Part shown: positions 1 to 6,987 of the stretch, in pieces | Position numbering within the stretch: the first letter of the stretch is position 1 | How the letters are laid out: each line of letters begins with the position of its first letter | NCBI RefSeq assembly: GCF_000981785.2 | Contig: NZ_CP026286.1 | Span: forward strand, 1 to 6,987 | Length of the DNA: 6,987 bases | Origin: Microcystis aeruginosa NIES-2549 | Lineage (GTDB): Bacteria; Cyanobacteriota; Cyanobacteriia; Cyanobacteriales; Microcystaceae | Reading direction: 5' to 3' | The notes under the pieces: generated by a model | Databases searched by the model: none | What the model was told of the DNA's origin: nothing | What the model saw: the letters and a program-made list of their open reading frames with translations, nothing else | Position numbers and translations under genes: made by a program

Positions 1-215
1 GGTGACAAAGGTGACTCGCTATTAAGTAAGTTGTCACCTTTTAAGTTTTCCGTACTGGACGGGTGATTCTCACTCAGTGGGTTAGTAGTTTTTACAGCAA
101 AGTGATTTTTTGAGTCACCTTTGTCACCTTTTAAATTAAAATCCTTATCTGGTAAGGGTTCTAGTGGGGTGACTATGCTGTCACCTTTAGTCACCTTTGA
201 GTCACCTTTGTCACC
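1..215. repeat. GGTGAC/GTCACC(TTT) hexamer-nonamer array, left part (10 exact copies).
   Basis: GGTGAC at 1, 10 and 168. GTCACC at 33, 114, 123, 180, 190, 201 and 210. The run 180/190/201/210 is four tandem GTCACCTTT units spaced 9-11 bp. Inverted-repeat pairs: AAAGGTGAC (7-15) with GTCACCTTT (33-41), and GGTGAC-tatgct-GTCACC (168-185). Confidence 0.9.
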
Positions 216-689
216 TTTTAAGGTTTTGAACTCGATCGAGCGAGAGGTTTTCCTGACTTCCCCGTAACCTTGATCAGCCAATTCCTTGAATATTTCAGCT
301 ATTCGGGTAGTAGGGAAGTCTTGACGGGTTTTGGTGTTAAAAGCCTTTTTCCGTGCGTTATTAGGGCTAATCCAATCGGTAGCTACCGATAGCAGCCTTG
401 CATAGGTGCTAGGTAAGTCATCCGATAACTTCCCATACATCCCCCTCACTTGATTAATAAAAAAGCTTACTAACTCAATAGCCGCGTTAACGATTTCCTT
501 ACCAATCTCTATCGATGGTGTAATACCGTGAAATAGGGAGTTAATGAGATGAAGGTTTAAAGCCAAGCGTCCGATCAGCCCTCTCGCTTTAATTAGCACA
601 TTTCTCATTGCCGGGCGCTGTTCACCATCGGCTAATGATTTAAGTCTGTTAGCAGCCTTAAGGAATCCGTGCCGGTCTCGATAAATCAT
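1..689 (-). CDS. C-terminal continuation of the primase-helicase (DUF3987-type C-terminal region plus KGD-repeat tail). It is in the +1 frame relative to 658..2697 and is partial, running off the left edge.
   Basis: Hand translation of the minus strand (codons 689-687, 686-684 ... 5-3) gives MIYRDRHGFLKAANRLKSLADGEQRPAMRNVLIKARGLIGRLALNLHLINSLFHGITPSIEIGKEIVNAAIELVSFFINQVRGMYGKLSDDLPSTYARLLSVATDWISPNNARKKAFNTKTRQDFPTTRIAEIFKELADQGYGEVRKTSRSIEFKTLKGDKGDSKVTKGDSIVTPLEPLPDKDFNLKGDKGDSKNHFAVKTTNPLSENHPSSTENLKGDNLLNSESPLS. There is no stop in these 229 codons. The frame is open from 731 and the first ATG is at 689. It is absent from the supplied ORF track, presumably because it has no stop inside the window. 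Confidence 0.6.
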   Translation of the reverse strand, partial: MIYRDRHGFLKAANRLKSLADGEQRPAMRNVLIKARGLIGRLALNLHLINSLFHGITPSIEIGKEIVNAAIELVSFFINQVRGMYGKLSDDLPSTYARLLSVATDWISPNNARKKAFNTKTRQDFPTTRIAEIFKELADQGYGEVRKTSRSIEFKTLKGDKGDSKVTKGDSIVTPLEPLPDKDFNLKGDKGDSKNHFAVKTTNPLSENHPSSTENLKGDNLLNSESPLS

Positions 690-2613
690 AAGTAGCCACT
701 GGCAAGCGATCGAAATGTCGATATAAATCTGTCAGCATCGGTGTTAAATCCGGGTAAGCCGCGTCAATATCAAGATCAAGGGTTGAGGGGGGAAGCTGAC
801 AAAAAATGAATCGCGCCCATTGGCCGCTGCTATCTTCCTTATCGCCTAACAGTTTCTCTAGCACCCCGGGTTGAATCGTGCCATAAATGCTTAAAAGAAT
901 TTTCCGACATACTAACGTTTTGTCGGGGTCGGCCCGGAGTGTAATCGGTGGGGTCCCATCAAAATATTCTAGAATGTCCTCGCTGTCAGACCCACGGCCT
1001 CCCCGGTACTGGTTAGCACTCTTGAATAAACCGGCGATTTCATCTCGGAAAAGTAACATCCCCTTATCTTGGCTATTAGCTGCATAACGCGCTATCCCCT
1101 CACCAGTTCCCCCGCTAAAATACCTGATCCGCCGGGTAGGTTTGGTCGGTGGTCCATCGGGGAATGAATCGCTTAAATCATCTTTGTTCTTTGATTTTTT
1201 GAGCATCTCATAGTTGGCTAGAGAGGACTTATGCTCACTTAGCTTCGCTTCATAGTCCTGATCATCCAATTCGATTAGTGACTTAAGAGGATCGGCAATC
1301 ATGGCACGGCCGATAATGCTTTTTCCTTCCCCCGATAACGCGACTATGGCTGCGTACAAGTTGGGGGGAACCTTCCAGTTGGTTTGAGGGTATAGGCTTA
1401 AGGCAGTGTCCGGGTGAAGGGTTGATGATAAGCCACTGAGTAACGCGGTTAAATAAGCCTCACCCCTCAATCCTGTTAGTCTGGCATGGTGATTAATAGC
1501 GTTAGCTAATTTTTCAGGGAGTACCTTAGTAAGATCAAGCCGTTGGCTGTCAGCTTTTAGGATATTTTCGAGGTCGCTGTAAAGGTCATCCTTGTCAAGG
1601 TTTTGGTCATTTTCTTGTAACCTCTCTTTATATATAGAGGTTACTTGCTGTTGTGTTAGATTGAATTCCCTTGCAATCGAAGCGAGTTTTATTTCACGAT
1701 TGGAACCGGTGAGGTTCTCAGTTATCAGACTATCGATAACTTCCCCTAGTTTGTCGGTTTCGAGTGGTTTAGGGTTGAATTTGGGATGACTGACTACATT
1801 GTTAGGTTTATCCGTTTTTTGCGGTTTAAGAGGCTTTTTCTCACCGATTCCCTTGATAATGTCTTCTTTGTTGGCCCCTTCATCTATCCAATCTTTCAGA
1901 TCAGCCCCCCTTGATTCTGGCAAGTGGTTCCATAAGGGGGAATCTGGGAAACAGTAAAGCCATTGGGCATTGGGGAAGTCCTTAGCTATAGCCTCGCAGT
2001 GTTTCAAGCCGGGAACATCTCGATCCGGACATAAAATCACGCTGGCCCCTTCTAAGTCTTTACTATCTGTCTCTCGCCATTTTCCCGAACCGGCTAGGTT
2101 ACAGGTTGCCGGCAGTCCCAATGACCATAGAAGATCGGCCTTACCCTCACCCTCAACGATAAAAATACTTTCCCCGTTGGCGATCGCTTGCTTGACTCCC
2201 TTGTATCGATAAATAGGTATATTTTCCCGCTTAATTTCGCCTAACCCCTTAACCCATTGTTTACCGTCCCAATGCTGCTGATAAAAGTCTTTTTTGCCGT
2301 TACCGTCATCTTTTCTTACTACTCTGATTAAGGGATTACCATCGCGATCAGGATAGTAATAATGGGTAGTTTTAGCCGGGCGTGGGGGTTTAGCCCATGT
2401 TTCCTTTTCCTTAATAGGCGCGTAATAGGAGTGACCTTCACTATCGGCCCCATCGGTTTTATACCATCCCGGTGCGGGTTCATGGTTACGCTTGCATACT
2501 GATAAATCGCCGATCGAGTAACACCAGTCAGGTTTCCCACAGTGGGGGCATGGGTTATCTTTGGTGACAGTGACTAGACTTTTCCCGTTGGTTTCGCTAT
2601 ACTTGCTGTACAT
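658..2613 (-). CDS. Replication protein: N-terminal zinc finger, Toprim (DnaG-like) primase and DUF3987-type helicase/NTPase, ended by a stop at 658-660. The track ORF starts at 2697; the ATG at 2613 is preferred.
   Basis: Zn motif: CPHCGKPDWCYSIGDLSVCKR. Toprim: IFIVEGEGKADLL ... ILCPDRDVPGLKH (conserved E and DxD). DUF3987-like: LPEKLANAI..., Walker-A-like ALSGEGKS, LLFRDEIAGLF...YFDG. The ATG at 2611-2613 is preceded by TAAGGAcattactaca, an AAGGA Shine-Dalgarno that overlaps the stop of the upstream ORF. The 2697 start would overlap that ORF by 71 nt and would translate through a terminator hairpin. Confidence 0.9.
   Translation of the reverse strand: MYSKYSETNGKSLVTVTKDNPCPHCGKPDWCYSIGDLSVCKRNHEPAPGWYKTDGADSEGHSYYAPIKEKETWAKPPRPAKTTHYYYPDRDGNPLIRVVRKDDGNGKKDFYQQHWDGKQWVKGLGEIKRENIPIYRYKGVKQAIANGESIFIVEGEGKADLLWSLGLPATCNLAGSGKWRETDSKDLEGASVILCPDRDVPGLKHCEAIAKDFPNAQWLYCFPDSPLWNHLPESRGADLKDWIDEGANKEDIIKGIGEKKPLKPQKTDKPNNVVSHPKFNPKPLETDKLGEVIDSLITENLTGSNREIKLASIAREFNLTQQQVTSIYKERLQENDQNLDKDDLYSDLENILKADSQRLDLTKVLPEKLANAINHHARLTGLRGEAYLTALLSGLSSTLHPDTALSLYPQTNWKVPPNLYAAIVALSGEGKSIIGRAMIADPLKSLIELDDQDYEAKLSEHKSSLANYEMLKKSKNKDDLSDSFPDGPPTKPTRRIRYFSGGTGEGIARYAANSQDKGMLLFRDEIAGLFKSANQYRGGRGSDSEDILEYFDGTPPITLRADPDKTLVCRKILLSIYGTIQPGVLEKLLGDKEDSSGQWARFIFCQLPPSTLDLDIDAAYPDLTPMLTDLYRHFDRLPVATYDLSRPARIP
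2575..2603 (+). promoter_or_regulatory. Candidate sigma70-type promoter (TAGACT-N17-TATACT) that could drive a ~70-nt RNA antisense to the rep start.
   Basis: TAGACT lies at 2575-2580 and TATACT at 2598-2603, with a 17-nt spacer. The terminator hairpin begins about 40 nt downstream of the predicted start site. This rests on motif matching only. Confidence 0.3.
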
Positions 2614-2626
2614 TGTAGTAATGTCC

Positions 2627-3064
2627 TTAATTTTCAAAAAGTACGAAACCACAGCGATCGTTAGTCGCTGTGGTTTTTTGGTTGTTTTGAGAGGCATTGC
2701 CGGGGATACCGACGGTATCCCCCCGATACAGATTTAAAGCGGCGATCGCATCCTGATCAAGATGCCCGGCACCTTCTAAAATTTCTAAGGCTTTTGTTAA
2801 TTCCCCTTGGGCGATCGAGCGCCTCAACCCGTCCGGTCTTTTCTTTTTATGAGTGAGTTTTGCGAAGATTCCACAGTCCCGGCACTGATAGAGAGACCTA
2901 ATCGGGCCAGACTCGATTAATTCCCCTAAATTTTCGCACCTAGGGCATTTTACCGATGATTCTAGATTGTGATATGATTTATCACAATGACCATCGATTG
3001 ATAAATCTTTTTTGTCGGTTGAGCAAACTTGATGAAGTTTGCTAAAGTTTGATAGATTGTACAT
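2627..3064 (-). CDS. Zinc-ribbon protein of unknown function, first gene of the rep transcription unit.
   Basis: 145-aa ORF with an ATG start. It has CPRC...(17 aa)...CRDC plus upstream C/H residues (CSTD, HCDKSYH). Its last ~17 codons are encoded by the 2646-2676 hairpin. Its TAA stop lies 13 nt before the rep ATG at 2613. Confidence 0.6.
   Translation of the reverse strand: MYNLSNFSKLHQVCSTDKKDLSIDGHCDKSYHNLESSVKCPRCENLGELIESGPIRSLYQCRDCGIFAKLTHKKKRPDGLRRSIAQGELTKALEILEGAGHLDQDAIAALNLYRGDTVGIPGNASQNNQKTTATNDRCGFVLFEN
2646..2689 (+). terminator. Strong stem-loop with a T-run on the plus strand (an intrinsic terminator facing into the rep leader). It is weaker but also terminator-like on the minus strand.
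   Basis: aaaccacagcga (2646-2657) pairs perfectly with tcgctgtggttt (2665-2676), with a 7-nt loop tcgttag. On the plus strand it is followed by ttttttggttgtttt. On the minus strand the stem is followed by tttcgtacttttt. Confidence 0.65.
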
Positions 3065-3545: not shown

Positions 3546-4055
3546 TTAGATGTTGAATCGCTTCTGAGTAGCGATAAACAAGCTTGTAGCGACTTGCCGG
3601 CGATCATCCGGGGTAATATTCTCTACCCGTTGGTCAACGGTTTTTAAGCAGAAATTGAACAGATCAGCCATATCCCCAACATATTGCGCGATTTCTCGCT
3701 TCTGATTAGGCGATAAGGTTGATTGGTCATTTTGGGAAGGTTTCTCGCTGGTTTCCTCGATTTTATGGTTAAAATTGTGAACGGGTTTTACCGGAACCGG
3801 TTCCACTGGTAGGGGTTGACCTAAACTGACTAAATTAGGGTCTTCTACTAGCGAATATTTACCCTTATTGTCAAGGGTTAAGGTCAAGCGAGCGTTCTTA
3901 ATCACATACTTTTGAGAGTAATCATCGTCACCACCGCGCCACACGGTCACTTTTTCCCCGTTATCACGTCTTACCGCGTCAATTACGGTTCTCTCGCCGT
4001 ATTTAGTGTTAACGCGCCGGGCGCGGTCTGTGGCCATTGCTTCGATTAGTTGCAT
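3546..4055 (-). CDS. Hypothetical protein with a possible N-terminal OB-fold-like domain, a Pro-rich linker and a helical C-terminal domain.
   Basis: 169-aa ORF with an ATG start; AAGGA lies 13 nt upstream. The N-terminus RARRVNTKYGERTVIDAVRRDNGEKVTVWRGGDD...ARLTLTLDNKGKYSLVE has the alternating beta pattern typical of OB folds. This is by eye only; no family is recognised. Confidence 0.55.
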   Translation of the reverse strand: MQLIEAMATDRARRVNTKYGERTVIDAVRRDNGEKVTVWRGGDDDYSQKYVIKNARLTLTLDNKGKYSLVEDPNLVSLGQPLPVEPVPVKPVHNFNHKIEETSEKPSQNDQSTLSPNQKREIAQYVGDMADLFNFCLKTVDQRVENITPDDRRQVATSLFIATQKRFNI

Positions 4056-4139
4056 AATAGAGATATCCTTTTTGGATGTTAGGCGATCGCTTTTTGATTG
4101 GAAGTCTGGGAGCGGTCGCTTTTGGTTTATATGTATATA

Positions 4140-4288
4140 TTATCCGATACTCTATCAGATTGCAATACCTATGCGATTAAACTATCTGATAAGTAAACGA
4201 TAATAATATCAGATATTCTAATAGGATATTTATCGGAGTTAGTGATAGTATGAATGTAAACCCGATAATATATCTGATATAGTTATTT
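4140..4288. promoter_or_regulatory. AT-rich divergent promoter/operator region with four TATC-N-GAT(A) pseudo-palindromes and GATAAT(A)ATATC boxes.
   Basis: CTATCAGAT at 4152-4160, CTATCTGAT at 4182-4190, ATATCAGATAT at 4206-4216, and ATATCTGATAT at 4270-4280 (the reverse complement of the third site). GATAATAATATCA at 4199-4211 and GATAATATATC at 4264-4274. The region lies between the divergent starts at 4055 (-) and 4289 (+). Confidence 0.6.
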
Positions 4289-4600
4289 ATGCCTAAAATT
4301 AACGATAACGTTGTCCGGGTTGACTTCCGGTGTCCGATCGCAATTTACCAAGCGATCGAGAAATTAGCAGAGGAAAATGGGCAGCCGATCCACCACATAA
4401 GTGGAAAAGTACAGATAAGCAGTACCATCATTGACTTATTAAAAACAGGGTTAGCAATTCACGCCCCGGACTCCCTACCCCAATCGAATGGGGGGAATTT
4501 AGCCGATAAGCTATCAGAAAAAATCGATGACGCGATCGAGGCTAAAATGAACGCGGCGATCGCTTCCCTTCGCGCTGAATTACTAACACCTAACACCTAA
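4289..4600 (+). CDS. Ribbon-helix-helix (CopG/Arc/MetJ-like) DNA-binding protein with a C-terminal helical tail.
   Basis: VVRVDFRCPIAIYQAIEKLAEENG...ISSTIIDLLKTGL fits a beta-strand, helix, helix layout. The gene sits next to palindromic operators and is followed by a terminator. Confidence 0.6.
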   Translation: MPKINDNVVRVDFRCPIAIYQAIEKLAEENGQPIHHISGKVQISSTIIDLLKTGLAIHAPDSLPQSNGGNLADKLSEKIDDAIEAKMNAAIASLRAELLTPNT

Positions 4601-4677: not shown

Positions 4678-5226
4678 ATGAAGCGCGATCGCAACGGACA
4701 AGCCAAAATCCTTACTGACAGCGAAGTATCAGCTATATTTAGCCTTTTAAGTGCTAGAGATAGGGCTATTTTCGCTATCTGTCTTTATGGCGCGTGTAGA
4801 ATCTCTGAGGCCTTGTCGATTAGAGCGGGGGATATAGCCAATGGCGTAATCATTCTCAGGAAAAATTCGACTAAAGGAAAAAAGGGAACGCGATCGCTAC
4901 CTATTTCTCCCAATCTCGAAAAAATTCTCAATGATTACATCGACTCGATCGCTTTCCCCGGTGACTTCCTTTTTCCCGGTAGGGACGGCACTAAACCCTT
5001 AACCACTGCCTACGCTGATCTGGTATTAAGGGAATCTTGCCAAAAATTGGGACTTAAGGGTATATCGACTCACTCATTCCGTAGGACCGCGTTAACCCGT
5101 ATGCACTTAGCAGGGGTCCCACTGCGAACTATTCAGCGAATTAGTGGGCATTCATCCCTAGCGGCCCTATCGGTTTATCTGGAAGTGAGTAACCAAAACC
5201 TTATCGATGCTGTGGGATTGATTTAA
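4678..5226 (+). CDS. Tyrosine recombinase (phage-integrase family), catalytic domain only (182 aa).
   Basis: Catalytic residues are readable: R in GACRISEAL, K in STKGKKGTRSLPI, HxxR in THSFRRT, then GHSSLAALSVYLE (H...Y). An in-frame TGA at 4624 rules out a longer N-terminus, so there is no core-binding domain. Confidence 0.88.
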   Translation: MKRDRNGQAKILTDSEVSAIFSLLSARDRAIFAICLYGACRISEALSIRAGDIANGVIILRKNSTKGKKGTRSLPISPNLEKILNDYIDSIAFPGDFLFPGRDGTKPLTTAYADLVLRESCQKLGLKGISTHSFRRTALTRMHLAGVPLRTIQRISGHSSLAALSVYLEVSNQNLIDAVGLI

Positions 5227-5259
5227 TGCGATCAAGTGCCAATTCTCAAAGTGTCACAG

Positions 5260-5315
5260 TTAGATGGTTACATCTAAACTAATTAGATGATAATAATATC
5301 ATCCAAGATTAGATG
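5260..5315. promoter_or_regulatory. Upstream region of the 288-aa gene, with TTAGATG boxes and two inverted repeats.
   Basis: TTAGATG-gtta-CATCTAA at 5260-5277. TTAGATG at 5283-5289 and 5309-5315. GATGATA-ataa-TATCATC at 5287-5304, which contains the shared box GATAATAATATCA (5289-5301). Confidence 0.6.
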
Positions 5316-5638
5316 AGATGCAATGAGTAAAGTAATTTCATTTTCAATCAGCGATCGCTATCTCGATAAGCTTCGCTCCCTGTACCCAGCGCTGACTGAC
5401 AATCTGGCAGTCAAGCAATTTGTCACGGACGGGTTAGATTCACGCTTAGGCAATAGCTTAGATGGTAGCTTAGATGACGGGTTAGATGATAGGGTTAAAA
5501 CCCTTATAGAATCATGGGTAGATGGTTTATTAGAAGTGAGGTTAGATGCTTCTGTGGGAAAGTTGATCACTTCCTTGAGTGAGAGAATGGCAAGGCTAGA
5601 GGCAAGATTAGATGATAATTTAGATGGTAGTTTAGATG
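5260..5638 (+). repeat. TTAGATG heptamer array: 10 direct exact copies plus 1 inverted copy, with degenerate copies as well.
   Basis: Exact plus-strand copies start at 5260, 5283, 5309, 5458, 5470, 5482, 5542, 5608, 5620 and 5632. The inverted copy is at 5271-5277. Variants: TTAGATT 5434, GTAGATG 5518, TTAGAAG 5529. Two triplets of copies show 12-bp spacing. Confidence 0.9.
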
Positions 5639-6189
5639 ATATGGAAAGACTGCTAAGGTTACAGCGAGAGGCTTCGATCGCTTCCCCCCTTCCCCCTTCC
5701 CCTTCCCCTTCCCTTCCCCCCGATGAACCGGTTCAACCGGCTATCAGTGAACCGGATCAACCGGCGATCGAGGACTCGGAAAAAAAGATTGTGGACTCGC
5801 TAGATACTTTAATCGGTTCCCCAATCGGAATAGATGAGTCTGGTAGTGAACCGGACACGGACGCGATCGAATCCTTGACCAGTGAATCTGACTCATCTAT
5901 TGAGGGTGAGGACGCGATCGAAACCGTCACCCCGGAAGTTTCACCGTCACCACCGGACCAACCGGCGATCGGAACCGTTCCGGGTGACTCAATTGACACG
6001 GAACCGGATAAGGGCATGAATCCCAATCAAGCCCATGAGTACCTAATATCTAAGGGGATAAAAGATATTAGCTATTACTATCTGAATAAATGGGCTAAAG
6101 ATAAAGAAGGGCTGATACCATGGCGGGGCAAAAATGCGCGAAAACACCTAACACTGAAAGACGGCCTTTACTTCCCCACAACCGATTAA
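5323..6189 (+). CDS. Modular acidic protein: RHH-like N-terminus, LD(G/D) repeat region, Pro/Ser linker, acidic repeats and a small basic C-terminal domain.
   Basis: The N-terminus KVISFSISDRYLDKLRSLYP resembles an RHH strand plus helix. Repeats: SLDGSLDDGLDD and RLDDNLDGSLDD. Linker: PLPPSPSPSLPP. PDQPAI occurs twice (a third, EPVQPAI, is degenerate) and DAIE(S/T)(L/V)T occurs twice. C-terminus: NQAHEYLISKGIKDISYYYLNKWAKDKEGLIPWRGKNARKH. The low-complexity content lowers confidence in the exact product. Confidence 0.6.
   Translation: MSKVISFSISDRYLDKLRSLYPALTDNLAVKQFVTDGLDSRLGNSLDGSLDDGLDDRVKTLIESWVDGLLEVRLDASVGKLITSLSERMARLEARLDDNLDGSLDDMERLLRLQREASIASPLPPSPSPSLPPDEPVQPAISEPDQPAIEDSEKKIVDSLDTLIGSPIGIDESGSEPDTDAIESLTSESDSSIEGEDAIETVTPEVSPSPPDQPAIGTVPGDSIDTEPDKGMNPNQAHEYLISKGIKDISYYYLNKWAKDKEGLIPWRGKNARKHLTLKDGLYFPTTD
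5681..5721 (+). repeat. 41-nt uninterrupted polypyrimidine (C/T only) tract inside the 288-aa CDS.
   Basis: cttccccccttcccccttccccttccccttcccttcccccc, encoding SPLPPSPSPSLPP. Confidence 0.9.
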
Positions 6190-6201: not shown

Positions 6202-6423
6202 ATGACTGAGTACACCTATAAGGATTACAAGCCCTATTTTGTGAAACGTCCCAAAAAACCCGGCTATTTCACCCTTAGAGAAATCAGAGCCATGGCAGTT
6301 CCGGGGTGGCCGCAATCGATCGAAGGCCTGAGAAAAAAAGCACTTAGGGAGGGTTGGCCCCGGTTGGGGCGCCGTCCGTCTAAAGGGGGAGCCTTTGAGT
6401 ACCGTGCCGGGTTGCCCGATTAA
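6202..6423 (+). CDS. Stand-alone Mu-type winged-helix DNA-binding domain protein (similar to the MuA / Mu repressor N-terminal domain).
   Basis: YFTLREIRAMAVPGWPQSIEGLRKKALREGWPRLGRRPSKGGAFEYRAGLP aligns by eye with MuA residues ~4-53 (WVSPKECANLPGLPKTSAGVIYVAKKQGWQNRTRAGVKGGKAIEYNANSLP). Shared positions are PG.P.S..G....A...GW....R...KGG...EY....LP. Confidence 0.65.
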   Translation: MTEYTYKDYKPYFVKRPKKPGYFTLREIRAMAVPGWPQSIEGLRKKALREGWPRLGRRPSKGGAFEYRAGLPD

Positions 6424-6650: not shown

Positions 6651-6987
6651 TTAGGCTTTTTTCTTTTTCTCGCGCTTGGGGCCGGGAGTGTCCGGCGTGA
6701 CTTCATCTAAGGCAACCGTAAAGGGGGGATTTTCCTGATACCAATCTTGGATGGTGATTAAATCACCATCGACACTAATCACCCCATGGGCGCGGCCATT
6801 TTTGTTGTAAATACACTCACCCCCCGGTTTAAGGCTGTCAGTGTCACTTACCGGGCGATCGGAGTCGGTTTCATCATGGGGTGACTCAAGGGTGACTGGG
6901 GTGACTAAGGGTGACTGAGTATTTTCAGGGTAGTCACCTTTTGTAAAGCCTTGCTGTGATTGAGTTTCACTATCTAAAGGTGACTGG
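6651..6987 (-). CDS. 3' part of a minus-strand ORF entering from the right edge: a repeat-rich linker, a small beta-rich C-terminal domain and a Lys tail. It is probably the distal end of the Rep tail if the molecule is circular.
   Basis: Hand translation gives ...QSPLDSETQSQQGFTKGDYPENTQSPLVTPVTLESPHDETDSDRPVSDTDSLKPGGECIYNKNGRAHGVISVDGDLITIQDWYQENPPFTVALDEVTPDTPGPKREKKKKA, with the stop TAA at 6651-6653. It is open to position 6987 and is not in the supplied track. Confidence 0.65.
   Translation of the reverse strand, partial: QSPLDSETQSQQGFTKGDYPENTQSPLVTPVTLESPHDETDSDRPVSDTDSLKPGGECIYNKNGRAHGVISVDGDLITIQDWYQENPPFTVALDEVTPDTPGPKREKKKKA
6880..6987. repeat. GGTGAC/GTCACC array, right part (6 exact copies).
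   Basis: GGTGAC at 6880, 6891, 6900, 6910 and 6979. GTCACC at 6933. The 10-bp inverted repeat AGTCACCTTT (6932-6941) pairs with AAAGGTGACT (6976-6985). Confidence 0.9.

Follow-up and report, generated by a model that had tools for sequence, protein, structure and literature searches.

What is the function of a short DNA word that recurs sixteen times within the open reading frame of a plasmid replication gene? The question is raised by the plasmid of Microcystis aeruginosa NIES-2549, for which an earlier note, made from the sequence alone, had proposed an array of GGTGAC/GTCACC hexamers as a candidate iteron origin embedded in coding sequence. We analysed the whole of this plasmid, a complete, circular molecule of 6,987 bp (hereafter the window), together with homologous loci from other cyanobacteria.

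The plasmid and its interrupted rep gene

The 679-aa ORF of the window is identical to AUW34291.1 (myaer_p00010). In the literature searched, the NIES-2549 plasmid was only mentioned and we found no analysis of it. The numbering of the record begins in the middle of the array, and both the array and its reading frame run on from 6987 into 1; relatives could be aligned collinearly across this junction. Terminal overlaps, a sign of circularity, were present only in the relatives L015 and L032. A PLSDB megablast search with the whole window gave zero matches, and an Rfam scan of the window found no families. Promoter-like sites were at chance level in the window scan, and terminator-like sites numbered 12, compared with 7.6 +/- 3.1 in shuffles. 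The array region contains a single promoter-like match, at 6947-6918.

The rep gene is located on the minus strand. Its first part, ORF1 (2697..658), covers positions 8-261 of the Pfam DUF3987 profile, and the rest of the profile (292-363) was matched by the tail ORF, which bears the array and is read in another frame. In an alignment with six relatives, the window alone lacked 5 bp, between 667 and 668, and because of this deletion ORF1 ends prematurely; the Reps of close relatives are all single ORFs of 960-1,000 aa. Thus, the continuous frame of 340 codons described in the earlier note is indeed open, but it is not a separate ORF: it is the 3' third of rep itself, split off by the deletion. 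Since the deletion lies upstream of the predicted winged helix, the proposed DNA-binding part may be synthesised apart from the rest of Rep, or else the record may be in error here. One plasmid type has been reported for NIES-2549, and it is the one to which the interrupted rep belongs.

The full-length protein was modelled with AlphaFold on a relative that uses the same word (P0006), with a 74-sequence alignment. The model comprised, in order, a DnaG-like primase region, a P-loop helicase and a winged-helix part of three helices and a beta hairpin (residues 733-799, pLDDT 76-86), followed by a segment with pLDDT of 24-31 (802-926) and a small five-stranded domain (937-976, pLDDT 85-88). A Foldseek search with the full-length homologue returned DnaG catalytic cores (E about 1e-4), weaker hits to MCM/ORC/Twinkle, and winged-helix repressors. 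The window's own tail was also modelled as three helices and a beta hairpin (residues 86-152, encoded by 419..219; pLDDT 85-93), and the top Foldseek matches of this domain were all winged-helix DNA binders (MecI, Fur, ArsR/SmtB, MarR and DNA-bound AspA), with weak E-values of 0.01-0.2, as is usual for a small domain. By Pfam, Rep contained only DUF3987 and no Rep_3. Taken from these models, Rep is a fusion of a DnaG-type primase, a DUF3987 P-loop helicase and a predicted winged helix. The small beta domain and basic tail at its C-terminus can be made only by translating through the array. This C-terminal domain is variable or missing in other lineages, and in L008 and L009 a frameshift inside the array removes it.

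An array of short words in two opposed arms

A recount gave exactly the 16 hexamers that had been claimed for the 323 bp of 6880..6987 and 1..215. Six more, not about five, are present elsewhere, which brings the plasmid total to 22. From base composition, 0.12 hexamers would be expected per 323 bp (the earlier estimate was about 0.16), and dinucleotide-preserving shuffles of the whole 6,987 bp contained 1.81 +/- 1.34 hexamers, with a maximum of 6. Within the clusters the words follow each other at 9, 11, 10, 12 / 9 / 9, 9 / 10, 9, 11 bp, so the spacing is close to a helical turn, as had been noticed, with a range of 9-12 bp rather than 9-11 bp. Eight words are in the forward and eight in the reverse orientation, and on the Rep strand their layout (distances in bp) is >>>>< -45- >> -81- > -23- <<< -46- > -23- <<<<. 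One half of the array is dominated by forward and the other by reverse words, forming two arms of opposite polarity (Table 1). The inverted-repeat pairs noted earlier around 16-32 and 129-167, with words in both orientations, are real.

Table 1. Positions of the array blocks, their spacers and the parts of rep in the window
Feature	Position	Strand	Remarks
Array block I	168..215	-	4 forward words and 1 reverse word (Rep strand), spaced 9-12 bp; encodes KGDKGDSKVTKGDSIVT
Block I/II spacer	129..167	-	45 bp between the starts of the flanking words; encodes PLEPLPDKDFNL
Array block II	114..128	-	Two forward words 9 bp apart (KGDKGD)
Central spacer	39..113	-	81 bp from word to word; divides the forward-dominated from the reverse-dominated half
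Most of array block III	1..38	-	Forward word at 33-38; reverse words at 10-15 and 1-6
Remainder of block III	6979-6984	-	Third reverse word, beyond the record junction
Block III/IV spacer	within 6880..6987	-	46 bp, conserved, ETQSQQGF
Array block IV	within 6880..6987	-	Forward word at 6933-6938; four reverse words at 6880-6915
Predicted winged-helix coding region	219..419	-	Directly upstream of the array; AlphaFold and Foldseek
Rep ORF1	658..2697	-	Zinc finger, DnaG-type primase and most of the DUF3987 P-loop helicase
C-terminal small beta domain, basic tail (KREKKKKA) and stop	6651..6824	-	AlphaFold model of P0006

The array occupies a part of the 3' third of the primase-helicase gene, starting six codons past the wing of the predicted winged helix. 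In this plasmid, as in most relatives, it forms part of the rep frame, with 200-700 nt left to the stop codon. The peptide that it encodes was predicted by AlphaFold to be a disordered linker (pLDDT <35). The word columns of block I are nearly invariant across 8 relatives. In the spacer between blocks I and II, ATTTTAATTTAAAA comes after a small palindrome, CCTTAccagaTAAGG. This spacer is the least stable stretch within the array; the 30-bp stability window at 128 ranked 178 of 6,987, among the 2.5% least stable. We consider this spacer a candidate melting site. Its (E/K)PLPxKxL / CCTTA..TAAGG motif reappears in distant homologues. The central spacer holds the near-words AATCACT and AATCACC.

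Selection acts on the DNA word

Repeats within a disordered linker could also be thought of as a low-complexity KGD/SP peptide, produced by slippage and devoid of any function at the DNA level. Besides the predicted disorder, this explanation would account for the KGD and SP peptides being kept in class-a and class-b relatives, and it agrees with the indels of the tail alignment, all of which are multiples of three; hence the rep frame is under selection too. However, the words are found in either orientation and are translated in four ways, namely GD, VT (GTG-ACT), VT (GTC-ACC) and SP, which is one more than the three counted earlier. Their number was also never reproduced by codon resampling: when the same peptide was back-translated in 10,000 trials with synonymous codons drawn by the plasmid's own usage, 1.9 +/- 1.3 hexamers were obtained (maximum 8), and none of the trials (0/10,000) reached the observed 16.

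Conservation was then compared in the window and seven relatives with the same word (L010, L013 and L167-L171; 74-87% Rep identity). In these 8 sequences, 80 word columns were invariant and 10 variable, with a mean pairwise difference of 3.6%, as opposed to 115 invariant and 110 variable columns and a difference of 19.0% in the rest of the array (Fisher p=5.8e-11). Counting third codon positions only, the difference was 4.8% in words and 19.8% outside (p=4e-4), i.e. third positions were kept about four times better inside words, and the hexamers are therefore conserved beyond their flanking codons. The three bases between adjoining words vary freely (CCA, TTT or CTT, resulting in SPQSP or SPLSP), whereas the words themselves are fixed.

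Other relatives have changed the word throughout the array. In L005, L006 and L012, nearly all homologous word positions carry GTTGAC/GTCAAC, with a few variants (ATTGAC, TTTGAC); the switch affects both orientations and turns KGD into KVD or KID, SP into ST and VT into VN. In L008, L009 and L011 (class-b relatives), the word is GGGGATA/TATCCCC, in about 18 copies. This second switch is synonymous in both main frames, and KGD and SP survive it (GGT-GAC to GGG-GAT, TCA-CC to TCC-CC). The earlier note had held that peptides preserved by synonymous changes that destroy the hexamers would speak against a DNA site. In the class-b relatives the peptides are indeed preserved synonymously, but all of the about 18 copies have become GGGGATA, so that the array was replaced and not destroyed. 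As judged from these alignments, it is the DNA word, and not the peptide, that is kept by selection.

The array accompanies Rep across the family

The recovered family comprised about 60 close relatives of the Microcystis type and dozens of members from Microcoleus, Oscillatoria, Crinalium and Chamaesiphon. The family count included 48 loci with a full-length Rep homologue (31-87% identity) and enough sequence past the helicase; the array zone was set at 200-1,300 nt beyond the end of the helicase match, and an array was scored when a 6-mer had at least 8 copies per 350 bp. A lineage-specific 6-mer at this density, with forward copies about as frequent as reverse ones, was present in the zone in 42 of the 48 loci, compared with a median of 3 copies in 1,037 background windows, 0.8% of which reached 8. 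In 35 of 52 loci, the word of the rep-tail array outnumbers all other words at the locus. The words of distant homologues are 7-9 nt long and include AGTCCACA, CCAGTAGTC, AAAGTAGAC, AGTGTAAT and ACTGTAGTC, and further TCCCACAGT, GTCCTCAC, CCTCCCCA and GTGCCGACA.

Between distant lineages the peptides encoded by the arrays are unrelated (e.g. KVDDKVDKVD, TTETTETTE and CGNCGITVG), whereas the DNA architecture, with its layout of arms and spacers of about 45 bp, persists. In the Chamaesiphon relatives L138 and L139 (31% Rep identity), rep stops as soon as the winged helix is complete, and 13-14 words, pointing both ways, form an array in the non-coding DNA just downstream of the rep stop; therefore, the array does not need to be coding. 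We regard a peptide repeat generated by slippage as hardly credible. The argument of the earlier note, that a DNA word conserved across frames and orientations marks a binding site rather than a peptide repeat, is borne out by the agreement of codon resampling, conservation, word switches, arrays of other words and non-coding arrays. From this body of sequence comparison, the array is in all probability a selected DNA-level binding array tied to Rep.

Rep as the proposed reader of the words

The rep gene is the only one that accompanies the array throughout, and the predicted winged helix is encoded next door to it. We compared close Reps (helicase identity >0.7) and noticed that in pairs with the same word the winged-helix identity was about equal to the helicase identity, whereas in pairs with different words it was 19-31 points lower. 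In three identity bins this drop gave Mann-Whitney p values of 0.0035, 0.00015 and 0.001, calculated on compared pairs that are not independent. The covariation of word and winged helix is also confounded by their adjacency, since recombination could exchange both together. The class-specific residues of the winged helix are situated before the third helix and in the wing. On the basis of the models, we propose the predicted winged helix of Rep as the reader of the words.

Ribbon-helix-helix (RHH) proteins were the other binders suggested in the earlier note, in which case the array would be a centromere-like or regulatory site for a plasmid DNA-binding protein other than Rep. RHH proteins typically bind clusters of short repeats, direct as well as inverted (omega heptads, ParR/parC), and the plasmid codes for two RHH-like N-termini, recognised by reading the sequence and belonging to no Pfam family, in the ORFs 4289..4600 and 5323..6189. 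However, each of these genes has distinct repeats of its own at its promoter, TATCAGAT in four copies at 4153-4279 and the heptad TTAGATG in 11 copies at 5260-5640, and this separate set beside each gene makes the RHH-like proteins poor candidates for reading GGTGAC. Furthermore, the array follows Rep amid very different accessory genes, including those of the 28-39 kb Crinalium plasmids, and the word covaries with the Rep winged helix. An RHH-like or other such protein as the binder is, in our opinion, quite improbable.

Other possible origin signals in the plasmid

The least stable DNA of the plasmid is found at 4126-4290 and 5249-5330, and both sites bear other repeats. In the array, the 100-bp stability window at 65 had z=1.6, and other regions of the plasmid were clearly less stable. 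The spacers, described as AT-rich in the earlier note, are only moderately so; as DNA elsewhere in the plasmid is less stable, they provide no independent support for an unwinding element. Neither in the window nor in three Crinalium relatives of 28-39 kb did the GC skew point to an origin; in these relatives, the skew extremes track gene orientation, and only one of the three lies near the array. Matches to DnaA boxes were at chance level in the window, with none near the array.

These observations bear on a further explanation, according to which the words are Rep sites for copy-number control or autoregulation, for example by handcuffing between plasmid copies or as a roadblock within the rep transcript, and the true origin is elsewhere, e.g. 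in the AT-rich DNA between genes at 4126-4290 or 5249-5330. That the two least stable sites both bear repeats would fit such an arrangement, and intragenic sites are well placed to affect rep expression. Iteron plasmids such as P1, F and R6K commonly have additional control iterons beyond the origin. On the other hand, the rep-tail array is the only repeat set tied to Rep family-wide (42/48), second arrays being present at some loci only and differing in word and position between loci, and L005, a 5-kb contig, has no repeat array besides the rep-tail one. The repeats at 4126-4290 are located between divergent genes, like those of an operator. Moreover, two opposed arms are the layout of a self-loading helicase origin and not of control iterons (PMC9371898). 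A role confined to control appears unlikely to us. We consider it probable, from the sequence and by analogy, that the array words are iterons for the plasmid's own Rep and together constitute the most likely vegetative origin of this plasmid family.

Comparison with known initiators and origins

In the model published for SaPIs, iterons of 5-6 nt are bound by the C-terminal winged helix of a Rep helicase or of PriRep5, in which primase and helicase are fused (PMC9371898); 6-12 such iterons adjoin rep in opposed groups around a central region, and the helicase loads itself (PMC9371898; also PMC7581432). Cch2 of SCCmec offers a further comparison for replication modules of the SaPI/PICI type (PMC7581432). 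The parallel with these origins that had been drawn in the earlier note gained from our analysis, as a predicted winged helix is encoded right before the array and the array has two arms of opposite polarity. The initiator in both cases is a helicase fused to a primase, with a winged helix after the ATPase (predicted here from sequence and models), and very short, multi-copy words are found by rep (5-6 nt in SaPIs, 6-9 nt here), in opposed groups flanking a spacer and with an element-specific sequence. In number, the 6-12 iterons of SaPIs compare with 16 here, 8 per orientation. The systems differ in that the SaPI array follows the stop of rep, whereas here it is inside rep, between the winged helix and the C-terminal domain; the SaPI layout, with the array past the stop, is seen only in the Chamaesiphon relatives L138 and L139. 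The helicase here is of the DUF3987 family, the centre is only moderately AT-rich, and the host element is a cyanobacterial plasmid rather than a staphylococcal phage satellite. On the points that can be addressed from sequence, the anatomy matches the SaPI layout except for the position relative to the stop. A phmmer search of Rep against all PDB chains gave no relevant match and no solved SaPI Rep, and there was no SaPI Rep in the top 50 of the full-length Foldseek search.

An origin inside the gene of its initiator is a known idea and is not new. In lambda, the ori is inside gene O and has four iterons, each of 18 bp, together with an AT-rich block of 38 bp (PMC3349717), and the repC origin of repABC plasmids is inside repC, pSK1, pSK41 and pLS32 being further plasmids of this kind (PMC3155836). 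Iterons sitting in an open frame had been called unusual, which, in view of these documented cases (PMC3349717, PMC3155836), was overstated. Lambda O resembles the present Rep in that initiator-binding repeats are within the initiator gene and the part coded by the repeats is between two protein domains. However, O is without helicase and primase and recruits the host DnaB through P, in contrast to the sixteen words of 6-9 nt in two opposed arms and the initiator with its own helicase and primase described here. In lambdoid relatives, the specificities of initiator and iterons are matched. Likewise, in pSK1/pSK41, pLS32 and repC the origin is embedded in the initiator gene, and initiator or origin serves as an incompatibility determinant, but these initiators are unrelated to ours and have no helicase or primase domains; repC has no iterons at all, and in the Gram-positive examples the direct repeats are longer and occupy the middle of rep. 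The feature shared with this class is an array in frame within rep, with the frame open and the words conserved, where the origin role is the one we infer.

Large primase-helicase Reps of cyanobacterial plasmids such as pSYSA and pCC5.2 have been described as CyRepA1 and CyRepA2, with a minimal replicon that is essentially the rep gene and its upstream region, and no iterons are described in these papers (PMC9978351, PMC10079941). BLASTP of CyRepA1 against our Rep revealed no significant similarity (best E 0.16 over 49 residues), and slr7037, the CyRepA1 gene of pSYSA, has no word array in or after the gene. A link to the CyRepA1 replicon of pSYSA, which has been studied by experiment, was rejected for this lack of homology and of an array. 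A classical iteron theta plasmid of the Rep_3 type (RepA/pi/TrfA) was also rejected: such plasmids have 17-22 bp tandem direct repeats, DnaA boxes and a dimeric WH1-WH2 initiator, whereas here the words are 6-9 nt long and in two orientations, DnaA boxes are at chance level and there is no Rep_3.

The alpha protein of the satellite phage P4 unites primase, helicase and a C-terminal DNA-binding domain in one polypeptide and uses short repeated words (type I iterons). Its helicase is of the D5/SF3 type, and several kb lie between its ori and crr, which are separate sites. It is thus similar to the present Rep as a one-polypeptide primase-helicase-DNA-binding initiator with short repeats and different in its helicase type and its separate ori and crr. 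In the window, three GGTGAC copies are clustered outside the array, at 5926-5988, in positions that are not kept in relatives. A second, crr-like site at this place was rejected, as the word positions are not conserved.

A possible mechanism and its implications

The best reading of the array, by analogy, is a SaPI-like origin of a self-loading helicase that was absorbed into the rep frame. The winged helices of a Rep oligomer would bind the words of 6-9 nt, about one helical turn apart, in the two opposed arms, and two Rep rings could then assemble face to face and melt a spacer, for which the palindrome-bearing, AT-rich spacer at 129..167 or the 81-bp centre is the best candidate. Rep would load itself as the helicase and prime through its own primase domain, after which the host polymerase would continue. 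We infer Rep binding, melting and origin activity at the array by analogy with the systems compared above. In the ancestral layout, the origin would have been located just 3' of rep, as retained in the Chamaesiphon relatives; in most of the family the rep frame would have been extended over the formerly intergenic origin to a small accessory C-terminal domain, and through this extension the iterons have become part of the protein, as a predicted disordered linker. The two constraints can be seen side by side, in that the words are fixed and the frame is open.

It could also be that the coding role itself matters, i.e. that the sequence has a dual use and Rep translates through its own origin for the sake of the C-terminal domain. 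Rep bound to the iterons could then block the transcription or translation of full-length Rep, coupling the supply of the initiator to origin occupancy in cis, and the words might switch preferentially at sites where both main reading frames allow a synonymous change. We give this possibility a small chance. If true, it would provide a natural system for the evolution of a recognition code under coding constraint and for the rise of incompatibility types.

In the literature searched, we found no account that combines a self-loading primase-helicase and its SaPI-style two-arm array of very short words with translation of that array into the disordered linker of this very protein and with conservation of the arrangement throughout a large family of cyanobacterial plasmids with many lineage-specific words. 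Nor were iterons described there for cyanobacterial plasmids whose Rep is of this type. The array is a concrete, testable candidate for the origin and specificity determinant of a large uncharacterised family of cyanobacterial plasmids. Should rep and the array within it form a replicon on their own, they would be a candidate for a compact shuttle-vector cassette, and the pairs of word and winged helix would supply a set of mutually compatible replicons. The Rep family also represents a clean natural case of overlapping protein-coding and protein-binding codes, in which many independent word switches can be compared.

According to the SaPI-like reading, a joint change of word and winged helix would create a new specificity and probably a new incompatibility type. 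Crinalium epipsammum PCC 9333 carries three co-resident plasmids (28-39 kb) with a Rep of this family and with three different words, and their ParA/ParM loci are far from the arrays. This trio fits the words as compatibility determinants and counts against a centromere role.

Variation of the array among relatives

Two contigs from different samples (L008 and L009, both loci with a Rep homologue) carried a frameshift in a run of G residues inside one of the array words, which leads to a stop codon within the array itself. The Rep encoded by both of them lacks the C-terminal domain, suggesting that the plasmid can do without translation across the array. In another relative, L170, the tail of rep was found to be tandemly duplicated, and a second full GGTGAC array is present about 1.09 kb past the first one, within a second, partial DUF3987 ORF. 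Array words also differ within a single host: Crinalium epipsammum PCC 9333 has three plasmids that all encode a Rep of the same family as that of the window, and their words are all different (CCAGTAGTC in pCRI9333.07, AAAGTAGAC in pCRI9333.06 and AGTGTAAT in pCRI9333.05; L002, L003 and L004, respectively).

Throughout the Rep family, a motif was retained in the spacer of about 45 bp of the '>>><-45->>' module, which is a part of the layout of word orientations in the array. At the DNA level it reads CCTTAyCnGATAAGG followed by TTTAA, and at the peptide level (E/K)PLPxKxL; the conserved object may be either the DNA, as a small palindrome, or the peptide.

Three extra GGTGAC/GTCACC copies were located in 63 bp within the ORF 5323..6189. 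Their positions were not conserved among the relatives that share the same word, and these copies are therefore probably incidental.

Interruption and likely start of rep

Alignment with six close relatives, all of which have them, indicated that 5 bp are absent from the window. The deletion cuts rep into an ORF of 679 codons and a tail ORF, with the break falling in the part that encodes DUF3987, ahead of the winged helix. Since a single plasmid type has been reported for strain NIES-2549, the split may be explained by a sequencing error, by a Rep that functions as two separate polypeptides, or by recoding. The likely start of Rep was placed by the N-terminus of the relatives, MYSKYSE. Immediately upstream of it we also noticed a strong hairpin with a 14-bp stem and T-runs on both strands, resembling a bidirectional terminator.

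Coordinates of the features discussed
Feature	Locus	Position	Description
Spacer motif	window	129-167
Spacer motif	L001	7050-7080
Spacer motif	L017	3420-3450
Spacer motif	L019	2990-3025	further sites in others
Frameshift in array word	L008	6700-6712	also in L009
Duplicated rep tail	L170	6959-7226 and 8050-8317
5-bp deletion	window	between 667 and 668 (660-675)
Likely Rep start	window	2613
Hairpin	window	2645-2677
ORF	window	3546..4055 (-)	divergent from next ORF
AT-rich DNA with repeats	window	4126-4290	between the divergent ORFs
ORF	window	4289..4600 (+)	RHH-like
Tyrosine recombinase	window	4678-5226	short, 182 aa; Phage_integrase, E=1.5e-24
TTAGATG array	window	5260-5640
ORF	window	5323..6189	N-terminus RHH-like in appearance
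Extra GGTGAC copies	window	5926-5988
73-aa protein	window	6202-6423	Mu-type DNA-binding HTH, E=3.9e-5

Other repeat sites and genes

The most AT-rich and least stable DNA of the plasmid lies between two divergent ORFs and contains four copies of TATCAGAT/ATCTGATA in alternating orientation. This site is probably an operator, but also represents the foremost alternative position for an origin.

Coding sequence also hosts a second array, in which the word is the heptad TTAGATG, present in 11 copies that are mostly direct and arranged in triplets with 12 bp spacing. The array overlies the promoter region of the ORF 5323..6189 and the first part of its coding sequence, in which it is read as LDGSLDDGLDD, and it may represent an omega/ParG-type operator or centromere. 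In the relatives, arrays of CATCTAA, TAGACAA or other words were found elsewhere in the locus. The plasmid also encodes a protein with a Mu-type HTH and a tyrosine recombinase, the role of which is probably in multimer resolution.
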